Source: an uncultured bacterium (GTDB lineage: Bacteria; Patescibacteriota; Minisyncoccia; Phycocordibacterales; UBA9973). Taken from it: DNA of 64,000 nt. The stretch covers positions 65,714 to 129,713 of the forward strand of contig CAITGV010000002.1 in the NCBI GenBank assembly GCA_903892035.1, written 5' to 3'. Both the position numbers and the translations under genes were made by a program. Of this stretch, positions 1,268 to 57,750 are shown one piece after another (the stretch's first letter is position 1; the number at the start of each line of letters is the position of its first letter). Under the pieces are notes generated by a model. The model saw only the letters and a program-made list of their open reading frames with translations, was not told where the DNA came from and ran no database searches.

Positions 1268-1294
1268 AAACCCAGTGGCTAAACCACTGGGTTT
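1268..1294. repeat. REP-like palindrome family P1 (aaacccagtgg-N5-ccactgggttt), copy a
   Basis: Perfect 11-bp inverted arms with 5-nt spacer; overlaps the stop codon and 3' end of the RAYT-like gene 1279..1950. Confidence 0.8.
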
Positions 1295-1950
1295 ATGGGT
1301 AAATCATCAGGATCCTCAAGAGAAATTTTTCTTCTTTCTTTGCGAATAATCGAAATAATTTCTGTGCAGTGCTTATTAAACTTCATCTTACTATCAAACA
1401 TACTTAATATCCTACGTCCCTCAGTTTGTGCTACAAAATCAAATACTTCATTATCATATTCTTTGTTACTTGAAAAAATTAGGTGTTTTTTATTTTCTGG
1501 AATATCATGTACAAGATAATTTTGATTTACATATGGAAAAATCTTATCAAAATAACTTTGATCATCAATTAGTTTGGATTTAAATGTTCCCTGAAAAAGA
1601 GATCCTGAACGTTTATGCCTATCATTAAAGTAATATGTATATCCACCTAATTTATGCATGAATTTTGCTATTCCACCGTCAATAAGTTGTTTTAAAATAA
1701 AATGATAATGATTTGGATTAAGCGTAAATGCCACAATTGCAACAATAGGTTCATTCTTTTCCAATTCCAGTGGCTTAGCCTCTGTTCTTGGTTTATCCCG
1801 CAGACTGCCAATATTTTCAAAAGTATTAAATTCTATAATACTCTCTTTAAATCGCTCAAGATCTTGGGTATCTAAAAATATGTCCCTTTTGTCTACGCCT
1901 CTATTGTAAATATGAAAATATTCTCCTGTTACTATTTTTTCTCTCCTCAT
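1279..1950 (-). CDS. IS200-like Y1 (HUH) transposase / REP-associated tyrosine transposase (RAYT)-like, copy 1
   Basis: YHIYNRGVDKR motif, HUH motif NHYHFIL, C-terminal GSLFQGTFKSK motif; paralog of 47135..47791; flanked on both sides by the P1 palindrome. Confidence 0.75.
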   Translation of the reverse strand: MRREKIVTGEYFHIYNRGVDKRDIFLDTQDLERFKESIIEFNTFENIGSLRDKPRTEAKPLELEKNEPIVAIVAFTLNPNHYHFILKQLIDGGIAKFMHKLGGYTYYFNDRHKRSGSLFQGTFKSKLIDDQSYFDKIFPYVNQNYLVHDIPENKKHLIFSSNKEYDNEVFDFVAQTEGRRILSMFDSKMKFNKHCTEIISIIRKERRKISLEDPDDLPINPVV

Positions 1951-1971
1951 ATTACTTTGTATTCTACCACA

Positions 1972-1998
1972 AAACCCAGTGGCTAAGCCACTGGGTTT
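1972..1998. repeat. REP-like palindrome family P1, copy b
   Basis: aaacccagtgg-ctaag-ccactgggttt, 22 bp upstream of the RAYT copy 1 start and immediately downstream of the dnaQ-like gene. Confidence 0.8.
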
Positions 1999-2523
1999 TT
2001 ACATCAGCATCAATTTTTTGTAAAGCTCGTAGGTGGCGCGGGCGTCTGAAAGGGCGGAGTGAGCATTTTTGTTTTCAATTTGAAATTGTTCACAAAGAGA
2101 ACGAAGAGAATATTTCTGCATATCACCCATACCGTGAAGTTTCGCATATGCAATAGATATCGTATCAAGCTTATGATAATGCATATTGTTTTTTAATCCT
2201 GTATTTAAAAAAGCATAGTCAAGAAATTGTGAATCAAATGCCACATTGTGCGCAACCATTATTGCATCATTTGAAATTTCTAACAATTTCTCCAGAGCTT
2301 CAGGTAGAGATACGGCATCTTGCCAATCTTCTTTATTATAATGATTTATTTTAAGCGATATTGGATTTGAATTTTGAATACTTATTGGATTAACCTTACA
2401 CTCAAATTCCTTAATAATTTCCCCGTCACTTACAAGCACCGCACCAATTTCAATAATTTCATTTTGTGTGAAATCCAACCCAGTCGTTTCTATATCGATA
2501 AAAATTAGTTTATGATTATTCAT
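1999..2523 (-). CDS. DnaQ-like 3'-5' exonuclease (DEDDh, DNA pol III epsilon-like)
   Basis: Exo I FIDIETTG, Exo II HNVAFD, Exo III HSALSDA motifs. Confidence 0.85.
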   Translation of the reverse strand: MNNHKLIFIDIETTGLDFTQNEIIEIGAVLVSDGEIIKEFECKVNPISIQNSNPISLKINHYNKEDWQDAVSLPEALEKLLEISNDAIMVAHNVAFDSQFLDYAFLNTGLKNNMHYHKLDTISIAYAKLHGMGDMQKYSLRSLCEQFQIENKNAHSALSDARATYELYKKLMLM

Positions 2524-11367: not shown

Positions 11368-11381
11368 TCAGAGGAAGTCAT

Positions 11382-11432
11382 ATAAATTTGGCGACTAAGT
11401 CCCCAAATGGTGGACTTAGTCGCCAAATTTAT
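11382..11432. repeat. perfect 21-bp inverted repeat (ataaatttggcgactaagtcc-N9-ggacttagtcgccaaatttat) in mreB/priA divergent intergenic region
   Basis: Arms are exact reverse complements, checked base by base; lies between divergent starts at 11367 and 11457. Confidence 0.85.
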
Positions 11433-11456
11433 GTGACTTTATGCTAGTCTATATAT

Positions 11457-13424
11457 ATGAAGATAGTTACAGTCCTCCCAATTACAAAATCCCCAGGTGG
11501 CGATGAGCTCACATATTTCACCTCGCTTCCCGTTGAGGTTGGAAAGCTGGTTGGAATGCCTATCGGAAAAAGAACAGAGCACGGCATCGTGATGGCTGTA
11601 GCTGATGTTGGTGATATTAAATCAGAAATCAAAGACGCAGATTTTAATTTAAGAAAAATTCAAAGTGTTCACGGTAAAGCTTTTTTTTCAAAAAGTTTCC
11701 TTATCGCTTGTGAAAAGTCTGCAAAATATTTTCTTGGAAGCACAGGCCAAGTAGTATCTGCGCTAGTACCAGCGGTATTTATGAGAAATTGTGAAAAAAT
11801 TATTGAGTTAAATGAGGATGCTGTTGAATATACAGAAAATTTAAATAAAAATAATCAAAAATTAATTATTCAAGATGCTGATGAGGATCGCTTTTCTTTT
11901 TATCGATCTCTTATTCGTGAAGGTTTTGCGCAAAAAAAATCAATTTTTGTATGCTTACCAACCATCGCAGATATAAATTATTTTTCTGAAAAACTAACTA
12001 AGGGTATTGAAGATTATTCATACATTTTTCATAGTGAAATTTCAGAAAAAGAGATCTTGAAACGCTATGCAAAATTAAAAAATGAAAATCACCCATATAT
12101 CATTATTTCTACGGGTCAATATTTCCACTTAATTACCAATAATATTTCAACAATTATTCTCGACTGTGAAAATAGCGATGAATATAAATTATTTTCTCGA
12201 CCACATATAGATGTGCGTGTTTTTGCAGAATTATTTTCAGGAGAAGCTAAAATTAAATTGATACTGGGCGACAGATTGCTTCGACCAGAAACAATTGCGC
12301 GACTCAAAAATGGAGAATTTAGCGATGCCCTTCCACCATCATTTCGTCTAACAAAACCAGACAAAGTAAAGCTTGTGGATATGAATAAGATGCCTGTGGA
12401 CGAAAAAAATTCAATATTAGATACAGATTTTATTTTTTCAACAGAATCAAAAGAAATGATTACAAAGCAAATTTTAAAAGGTGATAATGTTTTCCTTTTT
12501 ACACTTAGAAAAGGTCTAGCTCCTGTGACAGTTTGCGGTCATTGCGGAAATACTCTTAAATGTGAAAAATGTGGCCATCTCTTTGCTTTATACAATTTAA
12601 AAAAAGCTGACGGTGAACCAGCTCGACTTTTTATTTGTAATTTCTGTAAAGAAAAAAAACCTTCCGACACTTCTTGCGAAAAATGCGGAAGTTGGAATAT
12701 GCAAACATTAGGCATTGGAACAGATCTTGTCACAGAAAAAGTTAAAGAAATATTCAATTTACCTGATGAAAATATTTTTCAAATTGATAAAACAGTAGCG
12801 AAGACTTCTGTGCAAGCTCGAAAAATTGCTGAAAATTTTTATAAAACAAAAGGCTCTATTATGGTTGGAACTGAGATGGCTCTTCGATATTTAAAACAAC
12901 CAATTCAAAACTCTGTCATTCTTTCTCTTGATACATTGTTTGGAGTACCAAGTTTTGCTTCTGGAAATCAAATGCTTTGCCTTGTTTCTGATATGCTTTC
13001 AATTACGGAAAAAAATTTTATTGCTCAGACGAGAAATTCAGATTCTCTAGTTTGGGAATGTTTGCGTGGCGGAAGTGCCATGCGTTTTTATGATGAAGAG
13101 TTGAAGGAAAGGAAAATTTTCAACTATCCGCCATTTTCTACACTTATTAAAATTACGCATGCAGGGAAAAAAGATCAAGCAAATGAAGCTCGTCAGAAAC
13201 TGACTGATTTATTTAAAGATTATAATCCAGACCTCGTAAACGGTTTTATGAATATTTCTGGCGGACTTTACACTACAAAACTTATAATGAAAATAAAACG
13301 CTCCGACTGGTCCCTTCCCGAAATTCACCCTTCTGGTTCTCTTTCCCCCACCCTTTCCCAAAAACTTCGTTCCCTTACTCCAAATTTTGATATAAATATT
13401 GAACCCGTAGAAATAATCAGATAA
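11457..13424 (+). CDS. priA: primosomal protein N' (PriA)-like, helicase motifs degenerate
   Basis: PriA N-terminal 3'-binding domain and Cys-rich zinc finger CGHCGN...CEKCGH...CNFC...CEKCG. Walker A (QDADEDRFS in place of GVTGSGKT) and DExH (DCEN) lost. Confidence 0.7.
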   Translation: MKIVTVLPITKSPGGDELTYFTSLPVEVGKLVGMPIGKRTEHGIVMAVADVGDIKSEIKDADFNLRKIQSVHGKAFFSKSFLIACEKSAKYFLGSTGQVVSALVPAVFMRNCEKIIELNEDAVEYTENLNKNNQKLIIQDADEDRFSFYRSLIREGFAQKKSIFVCLPTIADINYFSEKLTKGIEDYSYIFHSEISEKEILKRYAKLKNENHPYIIISTGQYFHLITNNISTIILDCENSDEYKLFSRPHIDVRVFAELFSGEAKIKLILGDRLLRPETIARLKNGEFSDALPPSFRLTKPDKVKLVDMNKMPVDEKNSILDTDFIFSTESKEMITKQILKGDNVFLFTLRKGLAPVTVCGHCGNTLKCEKCGHLFALYNLKKADGEPARLFICNFCKEKKPSDTSCEKCGSWNMQTLGIGTDLVTEKVKEIFNLPDENIFQIDKTVAKTSVQARKIAENFYKTKGSIMVGTEMALRYLKQPIQNSVILSLDTLFGVPSFASGNQMLCLVSDMLSITEKNFIAQTRNSDSLVWECLRGGSAMRFYDEELKERKIFNYPPFSTLIKITHAGKKDQANEARQKLTDLFKDYNPDLVNGFMNISGGLYTTKLIMKIKRSDWSLPEIHPSGSLSPTLSQKLRSLTPNFDINIEPVEIIR

Positions 13425-13425
13425 T

Positions 13426-13459
13426 TCCCTCTCCTTTACAAGGAGAGGGCTAGGGAGAG
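13426..13459. repeat. GC-rich hairpin repeat family R4, copy a (ccctctcctt-tac-aaggagaggg + ctagggagagg)
   Basis: 10-bp perfect stem directly after priA stop; about 85% identical to the inverse copy inside tsaD at 38512..38544. Confidence 0.7.
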
Positions 13460-13508
13460 GTTCTCGCATTTGCGTTTCTAAAAAGAAAGTGGTATTATCT
13501 TTTTACAT

Positions 13509-13760
13509 ATGCCAAAAGTACACATTGAAGTAAAAAAGGGTCCAAATGAAAACAACGTCACATTGTTGCGTCGTTTTTCTCGCAAAGTGCAAGATACAAG
13601 AATGATTCCAAAGGTTAAAGGTGCTCGTTACAATGAACGCGCAAAATCAAAATTAACTACAAAGAAAGGTGCTCTAAAGCGTCTTGCTCGCTGGAAAGAT
13701 AACGAGAAATTACGAAAACTTGGAAAAGTAATCGAACGCAAGAAAGGCGGACGACGCTAA
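13509..13760 (+). CDS. rpsU: 30S ribosomal protein bS21
   Basis: MPKVHIEVKKGPNENNVTLLRRFSRKVQ...basic C-terminal tail; typical S21. Confidence 0.85.
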   Translation: MPKVHIEVKKGPNENNVTLLRRFSRKVQDTRMIPKVKGARYNERAKSKLTTKKGALKRLARWKDNEKLRKLGKVIERKKGGRR

Positions 13761-13782
13761 ATTAACATATGCAGAATAAGAG

Positions 13783-13833
13783 AAATCTTCGCGCTTTACC
13801 CTCTCTACGGGGGCTCCGACACGACTCTGATTT
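13783..13833. repeat. GC-rich repeat family R3, copy a (aaatcttcgcgctttaccctctctacgggggctccgacacgactc + t/a gattt)
   Basis: 45 nt identical to 54604..54648; short terminal inverted ends aaatc/gattt; intergenic between rpsU and ybeY. Confidence 0.8.
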
Positions 13834-13906
13834 ATCTCATTCTGCTCCTACTATCAGCATAATAAGAGAAACAAAAGGCGAGCTTCCTAGCTTGCCTTTT
13901 GCCTAT

Positions 13907-14224
13907 ATGAAGGACACAATATTGGGCAAAAAATACGAATTGTCAGTTGCTTTTATAGGTGAAAAAAAATCTCATGAAATAAATTTTAAACTTCGTGGAA
14001 AAGATAAACCGACAAATATTCTTTCATTTCCCCTATCAAAAAATTCTGGTGAAATTTTAATCAGTCTTTCGACTGCAAAAAAAGATGCAAAAAATTTCGA
14101 CAAAAAACCAGCAGATTTTCTCGGTTTTCTGTTTATCCACGGTTTACTGCATTTGAAAGGAATGCAACATGGTAGTACAATGGAGAAGGCAGAGAAAAAG
14201 TTTTGCAAAAAATTTGGTTTTTAA
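13907..14224 (+). CDS. ybeY: rRNA maturation endoribonuclease YbeY
   Basis: TNILSFP and HGLLHLKGMQH zinc-binding H3 motif. ORF track starts at 13769, but those 46 codons are the R3 repeat and poorly protein-like; Met at 13907 (MKDTILGKKYEL) preferred. Confidence 0.8.
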   Translation: MKDTILGKKYELSVAFIGEKKSHEINFKLRGKDKPTNILSFPLSKNSGEILISLSTAKKDAKNFDKKPADFLGFLFIHGLLHLKGMQHGSTMEKAEKKFCKKFGF

Positions 14225-30913: not shown

Positions 30914-31080
30914 ATAAAAAAATTCCTTCGGAGAGGAATTTTTGCGCATGCTAATGCAATACGTTTCCTGCTCGGGACTTACATCATATTAGTAATCGGA
31001 CTTTTCCATTTTATTGGAATCACCGTAGCGGCACTGTGCAGGATTCACACCTGCTTCCCTAATATGAATATTATTTTTTT
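30914..31080 (-). promoter_or_regulatory. cobalamin (B12) riboswitch-like leader with intrinsic terminator expression platform
   Basis: Minus-strand RNA contains AGGGAAGCAGGUGUGAAUCCUGCACAGUGCCGCUACGGUGA, matching the cobalamin aptamer core GGGAA..GGUG..AAUCC..GC.G.CCCGC.AC.GU. Followed by hairpin AAUUCCU-cuccga-AGGAAUU plus U7 at 30914..30943. Confidence 0.7.
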
Positions 31081-31092
31081 AAATGCTTCAAC

Positions 31093-37557: not shown

Positions 37558-38853
37558 ATGAGAATATTATCTATTGAAACAAGTTGCGACGAGACATCTA
37601 TCGCAATTGTCGACGCAAAAGGTGGAATTAAAAATCCAGTATTTAAGGTGCTCGCGCACGAGACTGCTTCACAGATAGAACTTCATACACAATACGGAGG
37701 AGTTTTTCCAATGATGGCTAAGCGCGAGCATAGTAAAAATATTGTTCCGCTTTTTATTAAAGCATTGAAGAAAGCAAAAATGTTGTCGTATTCTTCCTCT
37801 CCTTTGGGGAGGTTAGGAGGGGTTCTTGAAAAAGCCCTCGTCCGTGAACCCGAAATGCTTGAAATATTTTTGCGTGAAATTCCTAAAATTAAAATTCCAA
37901 AAATTGATTTAATTGCCGTAACTGCCGGTCCAGGACTTGAGCCTGCACTTTGGGTTGGAATTAATTTTGCTCAAGCACTTGGCAAAGTTTGGAAAATACC
38001 AGTGAGACCAATAAATCACATGGAAGGACACGTCATGTCGGTTTTGATACAAAAACCGACAAAAATGTCTAAATCAGAATTTCTAATTTCTAAAAAAAAT
38101 ACTCAAAAGGTGGATGTGAAATTTCCTGCGATATCACTGCTTGTTTCTGGAGGACACACAGAAATTGTTTTAGTAAAAAATTGGATGGAATACAAAATGC
38201 TCGGTGCTACTCGCGACGACGCTGCAGGAGAAGCTTTTGATAAAGTGGCACGAATGCTTGACCTTCCCTATCCTGGAGGGCCTGAGATTTCGAGGTTAGC
38301 ACAAATCTACAGAAAAATGCTTGACTCGACCACACATAAAATCGTGCTCGATTTTTGCTCTGCTCAAGCCGTCGCTTTGCGCAAGGGTCTCCCTAAGCAT
38401 TTTTCTTCCGATATTCATTTCCCTCGACCGATGATCAATAGTAAAGATTTTGATTTTTCATTTTCAGGACTTAAAACTGCGGTTTTATATTACATACGAG
38501 ACAAATACAACCCCACCCTAGCCCTCTCCTTATCAAGGGAGGGAAAAATGCAAATAGCAAAAGAATTTGAAGATGCAGTTGTAGAAGTACTTGTTACAAA
38601 AACTTTACGTGCAGTTGAAAAATATGAAGCCAAAAGTTTAATTGTTGGTGGTGGAGTTTCCGCAAACAATGAACTACAAAATCAGTTAAAAAAACAAATA
38701 AAAAATAAAAAACTTTCCACAAAACTTTATTTGCCAATAAAAAACCTTTCCACCGACAATGCCCTTATGATAGCCCTCGCTGGATATTTTCGCTCAGTTC
38801 AAGGAAAAAAATATACTAAAAAAATCAAAGCCTCTGGAAACCTTGGTTTATAA
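37558..38853 (+). CDS. tsaD: tRNA N6-adenosine threonylcarbamoyltransferase TsaD (Kae1/Gcp family) with GC-rich insertions
   Basis: MRILSIETSCDETSIAIV, HMEGH, SGGHTE, GGGVSAN motifs; 431 aa versus about 340 typical, with three insert segments. Confidence 0.85.
   Translation: MRILSIETSCDETSIAIVDAKGGIKNPVFKVLAHETASQIELHTQYGGVFPMMAKREHSKNIVPLFIKALKKAKMLSYSSSPLGRLGGVLEKALVREPEMLEIFLREIPKIKIPKIDLIAVTAGPGLEPALWVGINFAQALGKVWKIPVRPINHMEGHVMSVLIQKPTKMSKSEFLISKKNTQKVDVKFPAISLLVSGGHTEIVLVKNWMEYKMLGATRDDAAGEAFDKVARMLDLPYPGGPEISRLAQIYRKMLDSTTHKIVLDFCSAQAVALRKGLPKHFSSDIHFPRPMINSKDFDFSFSGLKTAVLYYIRDKYNPTLALSLSREGKMQIAKEFEDAVVEVLVTKTLRAVEKYEAKSLIVGGGVSANNELQNQLKKQIKNKKLSTKLYLPIKNLSTDNALMIALAGYFRSVQGKKYTKKIKASGNLGL
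38512..38544. repeat. repeat family R4, copy b (inverse orientation), in-frame inside tsaD
   Basis: Reverse complement ccctcccttgataaggagagggctagggtgggg matches 13426..13459; encodes NPTLALSLSREGK, an insertion relative to other TsaD sequences. Confidence 0.7.
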
Positions 38854-45248: not shown

Positions 45249-47075
45249 CTATTCATTTCCCCCACTTCTCATCATTTTCAAAAACACTTCGTGAGGTATG
45301 TTTACCTTGCCACTTTCACGCATACGTTTTTTGCCTTTTTTCTGTTTTTCCAAGAGTTTCTTTTTTCGAGAAATATCTCCACCTCCGACAACCTTACTAC
45401 CGTGCATAAGCACGTCTTTTCTAAATGCTGAAAGAGTTCGTGATGAAAGAATTCTTCCTAAAGCATAGCCTTGGATTTTTGTAGAAAATTGTTGTCTTGG
45501 TAGAACACCGTGTAGTTTTTCTACAGCTTGCTCGGCTTCTTCATTGGCTTTCCTGCGTGACACGACACGAGTAAATGCTGGAACAACTTCGTCGGCAATT
45601 AAAATATCTAAACGTGTCACATCAGCTTTTCGAAGTTCTGCCATTTCATAAGAAATCGAAGCGAAACCTGCGGTAGTACTTTTCATTTCATCAAAAAAGT
45701 TTCGCATAAGCTCACGAAGTGGCATTGCAACGTGTATCTGTGAACGGTCTGCTCCAAAGTTTTCAGTCTCTCCAATTTCTGCTTCATGCTCGTAGAAAAG
45801 TTGCATCATGCTACCCAAATATTTTATTGGAGTGATAACCGTAATAGAAACCCAAGGTTCCAATACTTCTTCCATTTCTCCATCGTTTGGAAAAAGATGA
45901 GGCGAATAAACTGTAAGTAATTTTCCATTTCGAAGTTTTACAAAATATGTAATAGATGGAGTTGTAACAACTAACTCAAGATTGAATTCTCGGCGCAAAC
46001 GCTCTGTGACAATTTCCAAGTGAAGCATTCCAAGAAAACCAGCACGAAAACCGCGACCCAAAGAGCCTGAGGATTCTTCTTCAAAAGAAAAAGCTGAATC
46101 AGAAAGTTTCAAGCGAGACAAAGCCATTTTCAATTGATTGAAATCATCTTGACTTTCAGGATAAATTGAGGCCCAAACAACTGGTGTAGGTGTAAAATAT
46201 CCAGGAAATGCGGGCAGGTCACTTTTCCAACCTGTAATTGTATCTCCGACAGATGCAATACCTGGACGTTTGATTCCAGTGACTATGTAACCAATTTCCC
46301 CAGATGATAAAAGTGGTTGAGGTGATTCGTCTGGTGCAAAAGTTCCAACTTCTAGAGAAATAAATTTTTCACCTGCAACTTTAAACATCAATTCTTGATT
46401 TCGTGCCACAGAACCATCCAGAATTCTCACGTAAACAATAACACCCTTATGGTCAGAATATTTAAAATCAAAAACCAAAGCGCGAACATCATTTTTTCCT
46501 GTATAAGTTTCTGTTGGAGGTGGAACTCTTTTTATAACTTCAGATAAAAGTTCTGGAACACCTTCACCAGTTTTTCCTGAAACTAAAAGAATTTCATCAA
46601 GTGAACAATTTAAAAGTGACGCAACTTCAATACGTACTTCATCTACACGCGAAAGCGGTGAGTCGATTTTTGACAATACTGGAATTATCACAAGCCCAGA
46701 TTCGCGCGCCATTGCAAGAGTAGTAAGTGTTTGTGCTTGAACACCTTGAGTTGAATCCACAAGAAGAATTGAACCTTCGACAGCTTTCAGTGCTCGCGAA
46801 ACTTCATAAGAAAAATCAATATGCCCAGGAGTATCGATAAGATTTAATTCATAATCAATACCATCAAATTTATGGCTCATACGCACAGGTTGCATTTTTA
46901 TTGTGATACCGCGTTCACGTTCGAGTTCCATGTTATCTAGCACCTGAGCGCGCATTTTGCGCTTCTCAATGGTATTTGTAACCTCAAGCATTCTATCTGC
47001 CAAAGTACTCTTTCCGTGGTCTATATGAGCAATAATGCTGAAATTGCGTATATTCTGGAGTTCCATAAGCCTCAC
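45249..47075 (-). CDS. lepA: elongation factor 4 (LepA)
   Basis: IIAHIDHGKSTL, DTPGHIDF, LSKID; LepA-specific C-terminal domain. Confidence 0.9.
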   Translation of the reverse strand: MRLMELQNIRNFSIIAHIDHGKSTLADRMLEVTNTIEKRKMRAQVLDNMELERERGITIKMQPVRMSHKFDGIDYELNLIDTPGHIDFSYEVSRALKAVEGSILLVDSTQGVQAQTLTTLAMARESGLVIIPVLSKIDSPLSRVDEVRIEVASLLNCSLDEILLVSGKTGEGVPELLSEVIKRVPPPTETYTGKNDVRALVFDFKYSDHKGVIVYVRILDGSVARNQELMFKVAGEKFISLEVGTFAPDESPQPLLSSGEIGYIVTGIKRPGIASVGDTITGWKSDLPAFPGYFTPTPVVWASIYPESQDDFNQLKMALSRLKLSDSAFSFEEESSGSLGRGFRAGFLGMLHLEIVTERLRREFNLELVVTTPSITYFVKLRNGKLLTVYSPHLFPNDGEMEEVLEPWVSITVITPIKYLGSMMQLFYEHEAEIGETENFGADRSQIHVAMPLRELMRNFFDEMKSTTAGFASISYEMAELRKADVTRLDILIADEVVPAFTRVVSRRKANEEAEQAVEKLHGVLPRQQFSTKIQGYALGRILSSRTLSAFRKDVLMHGSKVVGGGDISRKKKLLEKQKKGKKRMRESGKVNIPHEVFLKMMRSGGNE

Positions 47076-47111
47076 TATAGCAAAAAATGCCTTAAATTAA
47101 AAGCTAACTTT

Positions 47112-47132
47112 TTTGGGAGCTTAGCTCCCAAA
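47112..47132. repeat. REP-like palindrome family P2 (tttgggagc-tta-gctcccaaa), copy a
   Basis: Perfect 9-bp arms, 3 bp after the RAYT copy 2 stop. Confidence 0.8.
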
Positions 47133-47134
47133 TG

Positions 47135-47791
47135 TTAGTCGATGCACACTGATTTAAAATCACTTAAATCTTCCTTTCTTTTTCGAATTAAGGGTAATGT
47201 GTCTTTGGAATATTTAATAAAATCAGAAGAACTTTTAAATTGATCTAGAATAATATCTTTCTTACATATTCCATTTTTTTGCTCACCACTATATTCTGCA
47301 AAACTAGAAAATGGCAACTCCCTCATCCACAACTTGTTCATTCCTTCATGAACCATATTGTTCAAATTCACATAAACACCGAGATACAGTAAATACTCGT
47401 TTGAAGAAATATGCTTGGCTTTGTATGTTCCTTGAAAAAGCGAACCGGAACGGTCATTTTTTTCATTGAAATAATTCGTATACCCGGTAGAAATCCTGTG
47501 CATAAATTTCTGTACACCATTTTCAACCAAAGGCTCAAGAATAAAATGAAAATGATTTTGATTTAGACAGTACGCAATAATATTCACCAACTTTTTGGGA
47601 GCTAAGCTCCCAAATTTGTCATCTTCTCTTGATTTTTCATAAATACTTCCAATTATATCTACTGTATTAAACATCTCCATGCTATTAAGAAATCGTTGAA
47701 GGTCTTCCTTGTCTTCAAAAATATTTCTTTTATCAACACCACGATTATATATATGATAAAACTCACCTTCTTCAAATACTGTGTATCTCAT
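47135..47791 (-). CDS. IS200-like Y1 transposase / RAYT-like, copy 2 (contains an in-frame P2 palindrome)
   Basis: YHIYNRGVDKR, NHFHFIL (HUH), GSLFQGTYKAK motifs; about 45% identical to copy 1. P2 copy at 47594..47614 lies in-frame (encodes KFGSLAPK). Confidence 0.75.
   Translation of the reverse strand: MRYTVFEEGEFYHIYNRGVDKRNIFEDKEDLQRFLNSMEMFNTVDIIGSIYEKSREDDKFGSLAPKKLVNIIAYCLNQNHFHFILEPLVENGVQKFMHRISTGYTNYFNEKNDRSGSLFQGTYKAKHISSNEYLLYLGVYVNLNNMVHEGMNKLWMRELPFSSFAEYSGEQKNGICKKDIILDQFKSSSDFIKYSKDTLPLIRKRKEDLSDFKSVCID
47594..47614. repeat. P2 palindrome copy b (inverse orientation, spacer taa) inside RAYT copy 2 coding sequence
   Basis: tttgggagc-taa-gctcccaaa. Confidence 0.8.
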
Positions 47792-47806
47792 AACAATATT
47801 GTACCA

Positions 47807-47827
47807 TTTGGGAGCTTAGCTCCCAAA
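47807..47827. repeat. P2 palindrome copy c
   Basis: 16 bp upstream of the RAYT copy 2 start, directly after the LysE stop. Confidence 0.8.
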
Positions 47828-47828
47828 T

Positions 47829-48449
47829 TTATTTGAGAAAATAAATTATCTCTGTATATAGTATTTTTAAGGCGAGCAAAAATACTAAAATAGCTAGGGC
47901 CACAAATACTTTTCTAATAACTCTTTCATTCAGCAAAAATTTCCTTAGTGCATTAAAACCAAAAAAGATAATAGTTATCACCACAACCATTGAAATTTCA
48001 AATATTGCTACAAATAGATACTCCCCGTAATGAATACTGCTACCCATACTAAACGCAATAGGAAGACATACGGAAGTCCAATACAACCATAGTGGGCCAT
48101 TAAAAATCATTAACAGAAAAATATGTTTTATGCCAACTTTCTTTTGTTCTTTCGTATAATCAATTTTTCTAATTTTATAAAGCTGTAGTGCAATATACGC
48201 AAGCATCACCACACCAACAAAAGCAAAAATATGAAAAACAACATGCGGAATTTTTAACCAAGAAGAAGTCGCGACAAGTAAAAGGCCGATAAAAAACTCT
48301 GTCAGCCCTGCCACAATAATGTACATTCCCCCATTCACAAGACCCTTTTTAGGTGATCTTAATATTTCAGATAGAGCAATCAAAAGTATCGGACCAGGAG
48401 TAAGCCCACCTATAAATCCTAAAATTATTGTTGTAATGATATCTTTCAT
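47829..48449 (-). CDS. LysE/RhtB-family amino-acid exporter
   Basis: N-terminal GFIGGLTPGPILL motif characteristic of the LysE family; 6 TM. Confidence 0.7.
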   Translation of the reverse strand: MKDIITTIILGFIGGLTPGPILLIALSEILRSPKKGLVNGGMYIIVAGLTEFFIGLLLVATSSWLKIPHVVFHIFAFVGVVMLAYIALQLYKIRKIDYTKEQKKVGIKHIFLLMIFNGPLWLYWTSVCLPIAFSMGSSIHYGEYLFVAIFEISMVVVITIIFFGFNALRKFLLNERVIRKVFVALAILVFLLALKILYTEIIYFLK

Positions 48450-48456
48450 ATTCCTT

Positions 48457-48477
48457 TTGGGAGCTTAGCTCCCAAAT
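48457..48477. repeat. P2 palindrome copy d
   Basis: 8 bp upstream of the LysE start, abutting the ABC transporter stop. Confidence 0.8.
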
Positions 48478-50250
48478 TTATTCGATAAATCCCCCACTTT
48501 GGTGCGCCCAAAGGTCGGCATAAACTCCTTTCTTTTTTAGTAGTTGTTTGTGATTGCCGTCTTCGACAATAGTTCCATTTTCAAGAACAATTATTCTATC
48601 CATTTTTTGAATTGTTGAAAGTCGGTGTGCGATAACAATAACAGTCTTATCTTTCATTAATTCAACTAATGCTTCTTGGATATATGATTCACTTACACTA
48701 TCTAGTGCACTTGTTGCTTCATCAAGCAAAAGTATCGGAGCATTTTTGAGCATTGCACGCGCAATTGCTACACGCTGACGTTCACCACCTGAAAGTTTTA
48801 CACCTCTTTCACCTACAAAAGTTTCATAACCTTTTGGTAATTTAGAAATAAAATCATGAGCATGAGCTTTTTTTGCAACTTCAATAATTTCTTCTTCTGT
48901 CGCATCTGGTTTTCCATATGCAATGTTCTCACGAATTGTACGATGAAATAAAACTGATTCTTGTGGTACATACGAAATCATACTCCTTAAGTCATCCTGC
49001 AATACATTACGAATATCCTGATCATCTATAGTTATGCTTCCTTTGGTCACATCCATAAAACGCAAAATTAAATTTGTAATTGTAGATTTTCCAGCACCGG
49101 AGTGCCCAACAATTCCAATTCGCTGTCCGTGCGGTATATCTAAAGTAAAATTTGAAAATATTTCAGTATTATTTCCATAATCAAAAGATACATCACTAAA
49201 TTGCAAATTACCTTTTTGCATTTTTAATACTTCCGGATTTATTGGGTCCTCAATATCAGACTTAATTTCAAAAATATCAATCATTTCTTTCATATCTGCA
49301 CCAGCTTTCATAAATTTTGTAAGAGAGTTACCAAAATCCCAAAGTTTATCAAAAATAACAACAATAAAACCCTGTACCAATACAATAGTTCCTGTAGTAA
49401 TTTTATTATTTAGCCAAAGATGAACCATTACATATAAAAGTGAACCTTGAACAATAAATGCTAGAACTGCCTGAATGACTTCAATTTTCCCGGCAAGAAA
49501 CCAAGCTTTTCTACTTTTAATTGAAGCATCCTCAGTAATTTCTTTAAATGAATTGGTTTCAGATTTGGTTGCAGAAAATATTTTAACAGCAAGAATATTT
49601 CCAAATATATCAGCAAGGCGTCCGCTTATACTCGAATCAGATGCTGCTTCAATCACATCATATTTAATTTTTCTACGTAAAAAGAAAGCAATGATACTAA
49701 AATAAATTAATACCCATATTAAAAAGAAAAAGGATATTATTACTGAAGTCTTACCTAAAACAATAAAAACACCAACTAAAACTATAAATGTTGACCAGAA
49801 ATTAAAAAGCAAAATATCAAACATTGTTTCAAATGACCCAACAAATCGACGTGACTTTGTCACCAAAGAACCAGAAAAAGTATTTGCAAAAAAAGTTTGT
49901 GAGTGATATTGAATTTTTTTTAATGAAAAATTACGTAATTCTTTTATTACATTTATCTCAAAGGCGAAAAAAATAAACTTACAGACTCTAGCAGTAATTG
50001 TAGTTAGCAAACTTATAAAAATAATAGTCACAACCAAAATTAGTAGCCCATGAGATAAGTCAGCTTTATTTGTAACATTTTCAGACAATGTATCTATAAT
50101 TTTCTTAAAATAAAAGGGTCTTATTATATATTCAAGTGTAGTTCTAATTCCAAATATTATAAATATTGCATAAAAAGAGCCACGATATTTTCGCATTTGT
50201 GGCCATATGTATTTATATATTTTTTTAAACATTACAAAATTATAACACAA
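48478..50250 (-). CDS. ABC exporter, fused permease/ATPase (MsbA-like)
   Basis: 6-TM domain plus GHSGAGKST Walker A, LSGGERQRVAIARA signature, LLLDEATSALD Walker B. Confidence 0.85.
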   Translation of the reverse strand: MCYNFVMFKKIYKYIWPQMRKYRGSFYAIFIIFGIRTTLEYIIRPFYFKKIIDTLSENVTNKADLSHGLLILVVTIIFISLLTTITARVCKFIFFAFEINVIKELRNFSLKKIQYHSQTFFANTFSGSLVTKSRRFVGSFETMFDILLFNFWSTFIVLVGVFIVLGKTSVIISFFFLIWVLIYFSIIAFFLRRKIKYDVIEAASDSSISGRLADIFGNILAVKIFSATKSETNSFKEITEDASIKSRKAWFLAGKIEVIQAVLAFIVQGSLLYVMVHLWLNNKITTGTIVLVQGFIVVIFDKLWDFGNSLTKFMKAGADMKEMIDIFEIKSDIEDPINPEVLKMQKGNLQFSDVSFDYGNNTEIFSNFTLDIPHGQRIGIVGHSGAGKSTITNLILRFMDVTKGSITIDDQDIRNVLQDDLRSMISYVPQESVLFHRTIRENIAYGKPDATEEEIIEVAKKAHAHDFISKLPKGYETFVGERGVKLSGGERQRVAIARAMLKNAPILLLDEATSALDSVSESYIQEALVELMKDKTVIVIAHRLSTIQKMDRIIVLENGTIVEDGNHKQLLKKKGVYADLWAHQSGGFIE

Positions 50251-54122: not shown

Positions 54123-56588
54123 TTAAAATACGATATTAACCAAACGCCCCTTTACGTAAATAACCTTTTTAATTTCTTTACCTTCTATCCAGTTCACCAC
54201 GGCATGATCTTTCATTGCCATTGCTTTTACTTCTTCTTCATTCATTTCATTTGAAATTTTTATTTCTGCTCGTACTTTTCCATTTACAGATACAGCAATA
54301 GTAATTTCATTGTCGATAACTTTTTTAGGGTCAAATTTAGGCCAAAGAGAAAGGTGTATTGATTTTTTTTCGCCCAATTCACTCCAAAGTTGTTCTGTGA
54401 TATGTGGCGCAAAAGGTGCGAGAATTTGCAGAAACATTTTAAAATCCTTCTCGTCTACAGATTCAGCTTTTTCCATTTCATTTAAACAAATCATCATAGC
54501 TGAAACTGCAGTATTAAAACTCGTCGTCTCAATATCTTCTGTAACTTTTTTTATAGTTTTGTGCAGTGTAGCTTGCAGCGTTAGGTATGCTGAAGAATAA
54601 ATAAAATCTTCGCGCTTTACCCTCTCTACGGGGGCTCCGACACGACTCAGATTTTTTTTATTCTTCAGCATATTCTGCGCAACGATTTTATTATAAATTT
54701 TCCAAACGCGCTCTAGAAATCTTCTAGGGCCCACCATCGAATCTGTACTCCACGATACATGCTGATCAAATGGACCCATAAACATTTCATATACTCGCAA
54801 AGTATCTGCCCCAAAAGTTTTCACAATTGCATCAGGATTTATAACATTGCCTTTTGATTTTGACATTTTCTCTCCACCGTCAGCCAAAATTAAACCGTGA
54901 GATGTTCTTTTTTGATATGGCTCTTTTGTTGGAACCAATTTTAAATCATAAAGAAATTTATGCCAGAATCTTGAATACAATAAGTGAAGAGTTGTGTGCT
55001 CCATACCACCATTGTACCAATCGACGGGTGTAAAATATTTTAAATTCTTTTTCGAAGCAAATTCTTTTTTATTTTTTGGATCTGTATATCGTAAATAATA
55101 CCAAGAGCTTCCTGCCCAGTTTGGCATTGTGTCGGTTTCTCTTTTTGCTTTACCTTTACATTTTGGACATTTTACATTTACCCATTTTGTAATTTCAGCC
55201 AAAGGACTTTCACCATTATCAGTCGGCTCATATTTTTTTACTTTTGGAAGTACTACTGGTAAATCTTTTTCAGGCACAGGTACTACTCCACATTTTTCAC
55301 AATGAATCATTGGTATCGGTTCACCCCAATATCTTTGTCTTGAAAAAACCCAATCACGAAGTTTGTATTTTGTAACAATTCTTCCACCGACAAAATCTGT
55401 AATTTCCTTTCGGGCATATTCACTAGTCATTCCATCAAATTTTCCAGAATTTGTCAGTATTCCATCTCCAGTAAAACATTCGGATTCAATTCCTTGTGGG
55501 TTATTTAAAACCTGCTTCATTGGCAAATTGTATTTTTTTGCAAAAGCAAAATCCCGCTCATCATGCATATCTGCAAATATTGCTCCTGTGCCATATTGCG
55601 CAAGCACAAAATCTGCAATATAAATTGGAATCTCTTCACCATTTACTGGATTTATAGCTTTTACTCCTTTTAACTCAACACCGGTCTTATCCTTATCCTC
55701 AGAAGTACGTTCTATATCTGTTTTCTTTTTTGTATCATTAATATATTTTTCAATTTCACTTAAATTTAAAATTTGTGATTTAATTTTCAAAATCATCGGA
55801 TGTTCTGGGGCCAAAGTTAACGCAAAAGCACCAAATAAAGTATCGGCTCTTGTTGTGAAAGTGGTAATTTTTTCATCACTATTTTTAATTTTAAAATCAA
55901 TTTCACTTCCCTCGCTTTTTCCTATCCAATTCCTTTGTTGAATTTTAATTTTTTCCAAATAGTCCACAGTGTCGAGATCTTTATCGAGCCTGTCTGCATA
56001 TTTTGTTATTGCAAGCATCCACTGCTCTTTGTCGCGCTTTTCTACAGGTGTGCCACATCTTTCACAACAACCAGCAATTACCTCTTCGTTTGCAAGGCCA
56101 ATTTTGTCTTTCGGACACCAGTTGATAGCAATGCGAGCTTTATATGCCAAACCTTTTTTATAGAATTGCAAAAATATCCATTGCGTCCATTTATAGTACG
56201 CTGGATCTGTGGTATTTATTTCTCTATCCCAATCAAAACCAAAACCAAGTTCTTTTAATTGTCGGCGAAAAGTGTCAGTATTTTTCTTTGTAATTGCTTC
56301 GGGTTGTTTACCTGTTTTAATTGCATAATTTTCTGTAGGCAAACCAAAAGCATCCCAACCAATTGGATAAAGAGTATTGTAACCCTGCATGCGTCGTTTG
56401 CGAGTGATGATATCCATCGCAGTATTGCTTCTGATGTGGCCCACGTGCAAACCATCTCCAGATGGATATGGAAATTCAATGAGGCCAAAAAACTTTTTAC
56501 CTTTTGTATTTTTTACAGAATAAATTTTTTTCTTATCCCATTCCTTCTGCCACTTTTTTTCAATTTTTTTATGATCGTAAATTTTCAT
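54123..56588 (-). CDS. leuS: leucyl-tRNA synthetase
   Basis: HVGHIRSNTAMDI HIGH region, KMSKSKGN, LeuRS CP1 and anticodon-binding domains. Confidence 0.95.
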   Translation of the reverse strand: MKIYDHKKIEKKWQKEWDKKKIYSVKNTKGKKFFGLIEFPYPSGDGLHVGHIRSNTAMDIITRKRRMQGYNTLYPIGWDAFGLPTENYAIKTGKQPEAITKKNTDTFRRQLKELGFGFDWDREINTTDPAYYKWTQWIFLQFYKKGLAYKARIAINWCPKDKIGLANEEVIAGCCERCGTPVEKRDKEQWMLAITKYADRLDKDLDTVDYLEKIKIQQRNWIGKSEGSEIDFKIKNSDEKITTFTTRADTLFGAFALTLAPEHPMILKIKSQILNLSEIEKYINDTKKKTDIERTSEDKDKTGVELKGVKAINPVNGEEIPIYIADFVLAQYGTGAIFADMHDERDFAFAKKYNLPMKQVLNNPQGIESECFTGDGILTNSGKFDGMTSEYARKEITDFVGGRIVTKYKLRDWVFSRQRYWGEPIPMIHCEKCGVVPVPEKDLPVVLPKVKKYEPTDNGESPLAEITKWVNVKCPKCKGKAKRETDTMPNWAGSSWYYLRYTDPKNKKEFASKKNLKYFTPVDWYNGGMEHTTLHLLYSRFWHKFLYDLKLVPTKEPYQKRTSHGLILADGGEKMSKSKGNVINPDAIVKTFGADTLRVYEMFMGPFDQHVSWSTDSMVGPRRFLERVWKIYNKIVAQNMLKNKKNLSRVGAPVERVKREDFIYSSAYLTLQATLHKTIKKVTEDIETTSFNTAVSAMMICLNEMEKAESVDEKDFKMFLQILAPFAPHITEQLWSELGEKKSIHLSLWPKFDPKKVIDNEITIAVSVNGKVRAEIKISNEMNEEEVKAMAMKDHAVVNWIEGKEIKKVIYVKGRLVNIVF
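54604..54654. repeat. repeat family R3, copy b, in-frame inside leuS
   Basis: 45 nt identical to 13783..13827; translated on the minus strand as NLSRVGAPVERVKREDF in a variable linker. Confidence 0.8.
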
Positions 56589-57172: not shown

Positions 57173-57750
57173 ACTACAATAATAGCAAATATATGCTATT
57201 ATTTAAAGACTTATATTTTAATACAATGTCCCCTAAAAAACGTACAGAAAAAATAGAGAAATTTTCAAGCAGAGCCACAAAATGGATCGGGTCTTCAAAC
57301 TCGCTTATTTTCCATACAATATTTTTTGCAATAATGGCAGTACTCTCAATAGTTGGCGTAGATATGGATAAAGTTCTCCTAGTATTGACAACAATTGTAT
57401 CCTTGGAGGCAATTTATCTTTCAATTTTTATCCAAATGACAGTAAATAAAAATACTGCCGATATCGAAGACATCGCGGAAGATGTGGAAGAAATTGCAGA
57501 AGATGTCGAAGACATTGCGGAAGATGTGGAAGGTATTGAAAAAGACGTTGATGAAATTCAGCAAGACGTGGACGAGATTCAAAAAGATGTGGACGAAATT
57601 CAAGAAGACGTCGAAGACATAGAGGAAGTGCACGACCAAAAATCTCCTAAAGGTGAAAAAAATAACCACCCAGAAATACTAGAAAAAATTCAACATGTTC
57701 TCGAAGCGCTTGCAAAAGACGTCGAAGCTCTAAAAAACAAAGAGAAATAA
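57160..57750 (+). CDS. DUF1003-family membrane protein with acidic coiled-coil repeat tail
   Basis: KWIGSSNSLIFHTIFFAIM matches DUF1003; true start possibly Met at 57226 (MSPKKRT). Confidence 0.6.
   Translation: MDYSYYNNSKYMLLFKDLYFNTMSPKKRTEKIEKFSSRATKWIGSSNSLIFHTIFFAIMAVLSIVGVDMDKVLLVLTTIVSLEAIYLSIFIQMTVNKNTADIEDIAEDVEEIAEDVEDIAEDVEGIEKDVDEIQQDVDEIQKDVDEIQEDVEDIEEVHDQKSPKGEKNNHPEILEKIQHVLEALAKDVEALKNKEK
57462..57629. repeat. seven tandem 24-nt (8-codon) in-frame repeats encoding (D/E)V(E/D)(E/D)I(A/Q)(E/K)
   Basis: gaagatgtggaagaaattgcagaa-like units repeated back to back. Confidence 0.75.

Follow-up and report, generated by a model that had tools for sequence, protein, structure and literature searches.

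A Y1/HUH Gene With Three Copies of Its Own Palindrome

In the stretch of DNA analyzed here (64,000 nt of contig CAITGV010000002.1, from an uncultured member of the Patescibacteria, hereafter the window), a gene encoding a Y1/HUH protein is accompanied by three hairpin-forming copies of one palindrome, located upstream of the start codon (U), in frame within the coding sequence (I) and at the stop codon (D), and a divergent paralog in the same window is accompanied by three copies of another palindrome. We favor, with more confidence than doubt, the reading that this is a minimal gene-bound REPtron, that is, a resident gene for a single-stranded DNA (ssDNA) nuclease of the Y1/HUH type, similar to the REP-associated tyrosine transposases (RAYTs; REP, repetitive extragenic palindrome), which carries its own three cognate hairpins. 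It is established that the product has a RAYT-like fold with intact motifs, that the hairpins form a triad, that the palindromes are specific to paralog and lineage and change in concert, and that few copies lie elsewhere.

The palindrome of the first gene (copy 1), AAACCCAGTGG-N5-CCACTGGGTTT (27 nt, P1), has exactly two matches in the window, at 1268-1294 and 1972-1998, and none of 100 dinucleotide shuffles contained any match, even with three mismatches allowed. The two copies differ solely in the loop (CTAAA vs CTAAG) and, folded as ssDNA, reach a free energy (dG) of -12.2 kcal/mol at 1268-1294 and -14.9 kcal/mol at 1972-1998, with z-scores of -6.9 and -6.3, respectively. The only open reading frame (ORF) between them is copy 1 itself (1279-1950, minus strand, 223 aa). 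On the gene strand, the upstream hairpin U (1971-1999, minus strand; 13-bp stem, 3-nt loop, dG -14.9 kcal/mol) begins directly past the stop codon of an upstream exonuclease gene, and the 1972-1998 copy ends 21 nt 5′ of the ATG of copy 1. The downstream hairpin D (1268-1294, minus strand; dG -12.2 kcal/mol) holds the TAG stop codon (1279-1281) in its loop and is followed by TTTTGATATTT. A third, decayed P1 lies in frame inside the gene at 1768-1784 (minus strand; CAGAGGC-TAA-GCCACTG, with one A-A mismatch; dG -5.8 kcal/mol, z -3.1), where it encodes part of TEAKPLELE, residues ~56-61. A preliminary description of this DNA had reported P1 at the two ends of copy 1, with an overlap of the stop codon; the pattern search and the shuffles confirm both flanking copies, and the overlap proved to be a stop codon within the hairpin loop, while the in-gene copies of either paralog had been overlooked.

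The second gene (copy 2; 47135-47791, minus strand) encodes a protein of 218 aa that is 43% identical to copy 1 and scores 32.5 bits against Pfam Y1_Tnp. Its palindrome P2, TTTGGGAGC-TWA-GCTCCCAAA, is unlike P1 and lies on both sides of the gene, downstream at 47112-47132 (minus strand), 3 nt past the stop codon, and upstream at 47806-47828 (minus strand). A perfect 21-nt P2 is found in frame inside copy 2 (47594-47614, minus strand), where it codes for FGSLAPK; its loop has the opposite orientation to that of the P2 copies on either side of the gene, and its position is homologous to that of the decayed P1 inside copy 1. No third Y1 paralog was found in the 64-kb window. The G+C content of the window is 34.7%, and about a dozen perfect GC-containing hairpins with a stem of at least 8 bp occur in it, six of which are P1 or P2.

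Copy 1 Encodes an Apparently Active RAYT-Type Enzyme

The copy-1 ORF scored 25.2 bits against Pfam Y1_Tnp (gathering cut-off 23) and weakly matched NCBIfam REP_Tyr_transpos. An AlphaFold model of its product, built from 68 homologs, had a predicted local distance difference test score (pLDDT) of 80 and a predicted template modeling score (pTM) of 0.80, and a fold search with this model returned as the best match in the Protein Data Bank (PDB) the structure 4er8_A, Escherichia coli TnpA-REP on a REP hairpin (E 4e-5), followed by the TnpA structures of IS608 and ISDra2. This kinship emerged only by fold search, since PDB searches based on sequence, whether run with copy 2 by itself or with a profile of 16 sequences, gave nothing relevant.

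A profile alignment was then made with hhalign to the E. coli sequence verified as the 4er8 chain. It paired NPNHYHF of copy 1 with LPEHMHC (the HUH motif), SLFQGTFK with NIWQPRFW, PYVNQN with DYIYIN and LIFS with WPFS, so that HUH, FQ, Y140 and the FSS tail of the family correspond to E. coli H59/H61, W94-Q95, Y115 and PFST. The HUH motif of copy 1 is H81/H83, and Y140 of YVNQN aligns with Y115, which is catalytic in E. coli TnpA-REP, as shown by the Y115F catalytic mutant (PMC8266576). Among 68 family members H81, H83, Y140 and N144 are invariant. Because the hhalign pairing agrees with the fold match and the residues are invariant, Y140 was assigned as the catalytic Tyr of copy 1. By its fold match and its aligned invariant motifs, the copy-1 product is thus, to all appearances, a functional Y1/HUH enzyme and belongs to the RAYT (class 2) type.

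The preliminary description had called copy 1 a RAYT-like Y1 protein, which the Pfam hit and the top fold match bear out, and had pointed to alignment with a characterized RAYT as the way to locate the catalytic Tyr, which led to the correspondence of Y140 with Y115. It had also suspected that copy 1 might be catalytically impaired, having F where copy 2 has Y in GSLFQGT[F/Y]K. This difference is genuine, but it is ordinary variation: the position alternates freely between F and Y among close homologs, and in the E. coli enzyme, which is active, the residue aligned with it is F98. Impairment was therefore rejected, since the position is not catalytic and the catalytic Tyr is placed elsewhere, at Y140.

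The Layout Recurs With Other Sequences Across Patescibacteria

One scan of species-representative genomes gave 80 loci, one per species, which are phylogenetically related, so that the counts given below do not represent independent events. All 80 come from metagenome-assembled genomes of Patescibacteria, e.g., Nomurabacteria, Paceibacterota, Staskawiczbacteria, Giovannonibacteria and Moranbacteria, and homologs in Patescibacteria number thousands (2149 and at least 3508 matches). Hairpins were located by a mechanical scan with detection thresholds that we set ourselves. Where the full gene and its flanks were available (75 loci), D was detected in 74, U in 63 and I in 52. The 3′ end of U lay a median of 25 nt 5′ of the ATG, and the center of I fell at a median of codon 62 (interquartile range 60-63). 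The stop codon was found in the loop of D in 28 of the 80 loci and in its stem in 13, and in 31 it immediately precedes the hairpin.

The palindrome sequence varies by lineage yet agrees within a locus. The 8-nt arm of I equaled the U or D arm of its own locus in 41 of the 75 loci, against 3.4% of cross-locus pairs, and U matched D in 36 of the 75 under the strict 8-nt arm criterion. In seven further loci near close homologs of copies 1 and 2 the layout was repeated with other sequences; the palindrome is ACTTGGGAGC-TCA-GCTCCCAAGT in L083 and TAGGGCT-TAA-AGCCCTA in L088. Genomes with two or three paralogs have a separate palindrome for each of them, as in MFTQ01 (loci L021, L070 and L076), and these paralogs are similarly divergent. 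The pairing of each paralog with its own palindrome, proposed earlier for the window, thus holds there, in about 80 related loci and in the multi-paralog genomes.

The downstream hairpin is placed differently in five loci (L004, L010, L014, L035 and L050), where it lies 24-45 nt before the stop and the frame reads through it, giving proteins of 228-242 aa instead of the usual ~220 aa. In L004 the D loop is flipped and reads TTA (Leu) in place of the stop codon TAA. With D inside the frame in these loci, the C-terminus therefore varies with the state of the hairpin.

Some copy-2-like genes carry an internal palindrome elsewhere than near codon 62, namely L073 (+445), L080 (+439) and L075 (+233 and +520), and the one in L073 matches the flanking palindromes of that gene. 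In-gene copies thus arose at more than a single position. The region that runs from the Y motif (Y140) to the stop codon holds a palindrome only in L073 and L080 (+439 to +445 nt).

Concerted Change of the Hairpins and Constraint on the Internal Copy

Comparison of related loci showed that substitutions in one arm are accompanied by substitutions in the other and are repeated from site to site. L028 has GACAG...CTGTC where its relatives L034 and L036 have GATAG...CTATC, and the change is repeated at U, I and D; between L026 and L034, GAC/GTC is replaced by TGC/GCA, with both arms changed. When the 52 internal hairpins were aligned on their loops for the analysis of pairs, two-sided changes were found in nine of the ten stem pairs (177 cells). 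A G-C pair located five pairs away from the loop (alignment columns 8 and 20) is invariant in all 52, across both subfamilies, and the base preceding the invariant G is A or G in every one of them. This invariant G-C with its [AG]G could be what is left of the GT[AG]G foot that is canonical in REPs and, as such, a candidate determinant of recognition or cleavage.

The internal site is conserved at the level of nucleic acid rather than of peptide. Residues 48-64, within which I of copy 1 falls, are the only long low-confidence stretch of the copy-1 model (pLDDT<50), and the peptide encoded by I is variable; some internal stems are 16-20 bp long and reach past the core common to U and D. Because the peptide is variable and disordered while the stems are long within coding sequence, the constraint lies on the nucleic acid and not on the protein.

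The loop of the protein that is encoded around I has a similar length with and without a clean internal hairpin (35 vs 36 aa), and loci without a clean I show decayed forms of it, e.g., KTQIESKPLS vs KTQIAPKALS. Repeated fresh insertion was considered as an origin of I and rejected as a general explanation, given the equal loop lengths and the presence of decayed versions instead. The I site is common to both subfamilies, which are 43% identical, and has left decayed relics; the internal copy is therefore old. In most lineages I is kept in step with U and D, and in others, including copy 1, it is decaying.

An exchange of hairpin types was also observed among related strains. In L026, U and I are of one hairpin type and D is of a second, L034 shows the converse, and over its 3′ third the L026 gene does not differ from that of L036. 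This indicates reshuffling of hairpin types by recombination between the related strains L026, L034 and L036; the breakpoint in L026 was looked for and is not at the I hairpin.

Few Copies Are Found Away From the Genes

Beyond the gene triad no copy of P1 was found in 72.7 kb (the window plus 8.7 kb of extra contig), and a scan of JGI metagenomes for P1 returned one contig, unrelated and GC-rich, with a coincidental terminator. P2 has one extra intergenic copy, at 48456-48476, which fills the 28-nt gap between an ABC-transporter gene and a LysE-like gene. In addition, an imperfect P2-like inverted doublet that resembles a REPIN lies at 11375-11439 (dG -28.8 kcal/mol, z -13.6), in the divergent intergenic region between an actin/MreB-like gene and a PriA-like gene. 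Two inverted units, TTTGGCGAC-TAA-GTCCCCAAA, make up this doublet, which forms a nearly perfect palindrome of 65 nt, and its arm is closer to the hairpin of L073 (CTTGGCGGC) than to P2. In 298 kb of flanking DNA of 60 related loci, 18 extra copies were counted in nine loci, 17 of them intergenic and most at no more than 1.5 kb from the gene; around L083, L086 and L088 no extra copy was found up to 10 kb either side.

The canonical alternative, which was the view of the preliminary description, is a REP/RAYT system in which P1 and P2 occur genome-wide, have been spread by the RAYT, and have in the gene-proximal copies merely their nearest members. The RAYT-like fold and motifs agree with it, as do the cognate palindromes on either side of the gene, of which U is inverted with respect to D in the majority of loci, an arrangement known from REPtrons, and the existence of some dispersed copies and REPIN-like doublets, both in the window (48456-48476 and 11375-11439) and among the relatives. 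The number and place of the copies argue in the other direction, P1 having none to spare in 72.7 kb and the extras of the relatives being restricted to few loci and mostly close to the gene, and so does the foot: at the position of GT[AG]G, P1 has CCAG and P2 has TTGG, a true GTAG occurs in few lineages (e.g., L045 and L067-L071), and its last two bases, [AG]G, alone are conserved. In the DNA examined, the palindromes do not show the "repetitive extragenic" property of REPs, and the label of a REP class given earlier to P1 is not borne out, with neither a remote copy nor the canonical foot to support it. We consider a canonical system unlikely, if still the best of the alternatives to a gene-bound REPtron.

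Expression Signals and a Possible Role of the Hairpins in RNA

In most loci the interval from U to the ATG contains an extended -10-like element (TGnTAnnAT, or TATACT/TATAAT), located 7-12 nt before the ATG, and no Shine-Dalgarno sequence. The candidate element of copy 1, TGGTAGAAT (1961-1969, minus strand), stands 10 nt before the ATG, likewise without a Shine-Dalgarno sequence, and that of copy 2, TGGTACAAT (47798-47806, minus strand), has a one-base overlap with the U hairpin. If this element is the promoter, the mRNA would be nearly leaderless and U would lie in the -35/spacer region, outside the gene's own transcript. The D hairpin of copy 1 passes a terminator consensus scan, U has TTTT alone, and a secondary role of the hairpins as predicted terminators is likely.

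These signals bear on a further alternative, according to which the hairpins act in RNA, where they attenuate translation, attract RNase III or terminate transcription, and their identity is a by-product of gene conversion. D is indeed terminator-like, long perfect stems within the ORF would impede ribosomes, and IS200 is repressed by RNA hairpins. However, a promoter at the extended -10 element would leave U out of the gene's mRNA, and imperfect stems showed no RNA-type strand bias, with sense-strand G-T/A-C counts of 16/16 in U, 12/13 in I and 21/18 in D; such an even balance of G-T and A-C speaks against structures that form in RNA only. Moreover, structure alone demands neither a shared sequence at three sites nor a paralog-specific one, and repeats of 21-27 nt are short for homologous conversion. 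A purely RNA-level explanation is thus improbable in our judgment and ranks behind the canonical system.

Gene Neighborhood and Mobility

In each of the six independent contexts for which genes were called, the neighbors on both sides are co-directional with the Y1 gene. The arrangement UvrD-like helicase - Y1 - PheS was found in three genomes, whose Y1 proteins are 65-68% identical to copy 2, and it is between the genes for the UvrD-like helicase and PheS that the closest relatives of copy 2 sit. LepA is encoded downstream of Y1 in five loci, with an ABC transporter also upstream in three of these (L017, L022 and L030). In the window this ABC-transporter/lepA slot (45249-50250) is occupied by copy 2, and in L017, L022 and L030 by copy-1-like genes, 54-59% identical to copy 1 and ~41% to copy 2. 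The differing occupants of the slot hint that the gene is now and then replaced or moved.

An active insertion sequence (IS) similar to IS200, in which U and D would be the hairpins of the left and right ends, would accommodate some of these facts: the unit of ~730 bp is of the size of IS200 and consists of a single hairpin-bracketed Y1 gene, the fold also matches TnpA of IS608 and ISDra2, and the ABC transporter...LepA slot holds different Y1 subfamilies across genomes. We nevertheless regard it as very unlikely. The paralogs are merely 43% identical and the window has no more copies, synteny is conserved (UvrD-Y1-PheS in three genomes and ABC-Y1-LepA in several), the Y motif is Y-x3-N and not the Y-x3-Q of IS200, and the protein is 220 aa long with a C-terminal tail and without tnpB. 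The Y1 family had no matches in a phage collection and two distant matches only in a plasmid collection.

The chance presence of ordinary bidirectional intrinsic terminators at the two gene ends, a refutation considered in the preliminary description, is the least credible explanation, since, although both P1 copies are AAA-stem-TTT palindromes between co-directional genes and D passes the terminator scan, terminators account neither for the identical 27-nt palindrome at both ends in a window with few other strong hairpins, nor for the matching in-frame copy inside the ORF, nor for the recurrence of the triad with other sequences in dozens of genomes and the compensatory changes at all sites.

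The LysE-like gene beside copy 2 (47829-48449; matched by Pfam LysE at E 1e-4, which does not reach the cut-off) has P2 on both sides, at 48456-48476 and 47806-47828, in the same loop orientation. It had no tblastn match in the 80 related loci, including those that share the order ABC transporter...Y1...LepA, and may be a hairpin-flanked passenger cassette inserted beside the Y1 gene.

How a Gene-Bound REPtron Could Work

In this gene-bound arrangement, U lies directly 5′ of the putative extended -10 promoter, just past the upstream gene, I is held in frame near codon 62, where the protein has a surface loop, predicted to be disordered, that separates helix alpha-A from the pre-HUH strand, and D lies at or across the stop codon. 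E. coli TnpA-REP binds and cleaves its REP as ssDNA (PMC8266576), and by analogy the encoded protein would bind U, I and D when they are single-stranded; from this analogy we infer that the hairpins are the cognate cis sites of the nuclease. U may insulate the gene from read-through and repress the promoter, and D may terminate transcription, whereby the expression of a potentially dangerous nuclease would be kept low in cis. The identity of the sites could be kept by recognition by the co-evolving protein, or they could be homogenized by the cleave-and-rejoin chemistry of the enzyme, and rare copies would escape to nearby intergenic DNA, as at 48456-48476 and in the doublet 11375-11439, with no large-scale proliferation.

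A number of points weigh against this reading. The hairpin sets were chosen as hairpins, which inflates the share of paired positions and in part explains the 93% pairing of the internal ones; this choice does not account for the variety of pair types found at a single homologous position of the gene. I is decayed in copy 1 and in about one third of the loci and is thus not indispensable. The relative loop orientation of U, I and D is not fixed: among 40 informative loci, the commonest arrangement, U inverted with I and D alike, was found in 22 and all three alike in three, and the orientation flips even between the close relatives L053 and L054. Such mixed orientation is as expected of palindromes processed or copied as DNA hairpins. 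The low dispersal is shown for the DNA sampled, 64 kb and the flanks. As for the enzyme, the hhalign statistics are weak when taken alone (E 0.047), and the Y motif is without the Pro of Y-x3-N-P, the Y-motif signature of class-2 TnpA-Y1 proteins (PMC6006769), reading Y140-V-N-Q-N144-Y in copy 1 and YVNLNN in copy 2; the Pro is missing family-wide, while Y and N144 are invariant. Finally, the candidate promoter and its repression were read from sequence alone.

A more far-reaching version of the gene-bound REPtron can be offered only tentatively. A domesticated HUH nuclease might recognize, and possibly cut and rejoin, its own gene at three points, in a self-addressed circuit in which I would be under DNA-level selection. 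If this were true, the gene would self-regulate or would reversibly edit or excise itself (U-I, I-D, U-D) during replication, the family would show what RAYT-type enzymes do with essentially no REP population, and it would constitute a Patescibacteria-wide new TnpA-Y1 subclass with thousands of members.

The function of RAYTs is debated between REP dissemination and a host function, and the family described here is a useful test case, having cognate hairpins that hardly occur outside their own gene and whose layout, fixed at three sites, evolves together with the protein. This layout separates hairpin recognition from REP proliferation. P1 and P2 are short, defined substrates for biochemistry, and the two natural pairs of paralog and hairpin in one genome permit specificity swaps. 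Coding sequence, moreover, can be held as a palindrome matching the likely binding site of its own product, and a class of selfish or domesticated DNA element is added to genomes usually called streamlined.

Relation to Known Y1 Systems

The closest experimentally characterized system is the E. coli REPtron. With E. coli TnpA-REP (a RAYT of subclass 2.2; 4ER8), the family shares the Y1/HUH fold, for which it is the best structural match, and the aligned HUH motif, Q of W/F-Q, catalytic Tyr and PFS(S/T)F tail motif. With the E. coli REPtron it shares cognate palindromes that bracket the gene, often inverted, a low copy number and divergent paralogs. Unlike E. coli REPs, the palindromes are short and nearly perfect, without a GTAG foot or bulge, and unlike the E. 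coli REPtron the genes described here have a conserved in-frame copy inside the gene, a stop codon often placed in the hairpin loop and hardly any dispersed copies. The protein also differs from E. coli TnpA-REP, with Y-V-N-x-N-[YN] lacking the Pro, about 55 aa of additional length and a host among the Patescibacteria.

In-gene REPs as such are already known, and those of subclass 2.4 (Bertels group 4), in which REPs flank tnpA-REP and sit in frame within it (Quentin et al., 2018, PMC6006769), are the phenomenon closest to ours that has been described. Common to both are cognate REPs that flank the gene and lie within it without breaking the frame, in a peripheral loop, and a fully palindromic, "double-foot" form of the REP. 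In contrast to subclass 2.4, the internal copy here is N-terminal to the HuH motif (81-83), is fixed at codon ~62, looks ancestral and decays by point mutation; the motifs are FQ and YVNxN here vs WQ and YIxNNP there, and the taxa are Patescibacteria here and Cyanobacteria and Bacteroidetes there.

By published motif strings only, the family (NH[FY]H, FQ, YVNxN, FSS tail, ~220 aa) best resembles subclass 2.1 (Bertels group 1; TIRYT), which is characterized by NH[YF]H, FQ, Y[IV]xLN, an SS tail and a median length of 238 aa (Table 1, PMC6006769). Subclass 2.1 differs in being reported without REP-like hairpins and with C-terminal domains similar to helix-turn-helix or DnaA_C domains (PMC6006769). 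The family probably forms a subclass of its own, set apart by an architecture of three gene-bound hairpins. The literature that we searched held nothing linking Patescibacteria, or the candidate phyla radiation, with REP or Y1 systems.

With IS200 (IS200/IS605, tnpA only) the family has in common a one-gene Y1 unit of ~700 bp, an upstream hairpin that is possibly a read-through terminator, and an expected low expression. Unlike IS200, it is not multi-copy, has conserved synteny, a class-2-type Y motif and a C-terminal extension, and its three hairpins are identical, whereas the left and right ends of IS200 are distinct. Near-identical multiple copies, patchy locations, Y-x3-Q and a core-only TnpA of ~150 aa, by which IS200/IS605 elements are recognized, were not found here.

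Other Features of the Window

A search of the window with Rfam at gathering thresholds returned only six tRNAs and an AdoCbl (cobalamin) riboswitch, and nothing at the hairpins. The riboswitch (30958-31084, minus strand) scored 53 bits, slightly more than the gathering score of 50, in what is a reduced genome of the Patescibacteria. A direct repeat of 74 nt, with 89% identity and the core TTCGCGCTTTACCCTCTCTACGGGGGCTCCGACACGACTC, is present at 13770-13843 and 54591-54664, 40.8 kb apart, with both copies overlapping ORFs; a permissive Rfam search of 13300-14000, the region of its first copy, found nothing there. At 13427-13462 and 38509-38538, the hairpin CCCTCTCC-TTTACAA-GGAGAGGG and a 30-nt segment with 87% complementarity to a site 25 kb away make up a small repeat family unrelated to P1 and P2. 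Finally, periodic repeats of 21 nt, e.g., AAGATGTGGAAGAAATTGCAG, extend over 57437-57718.

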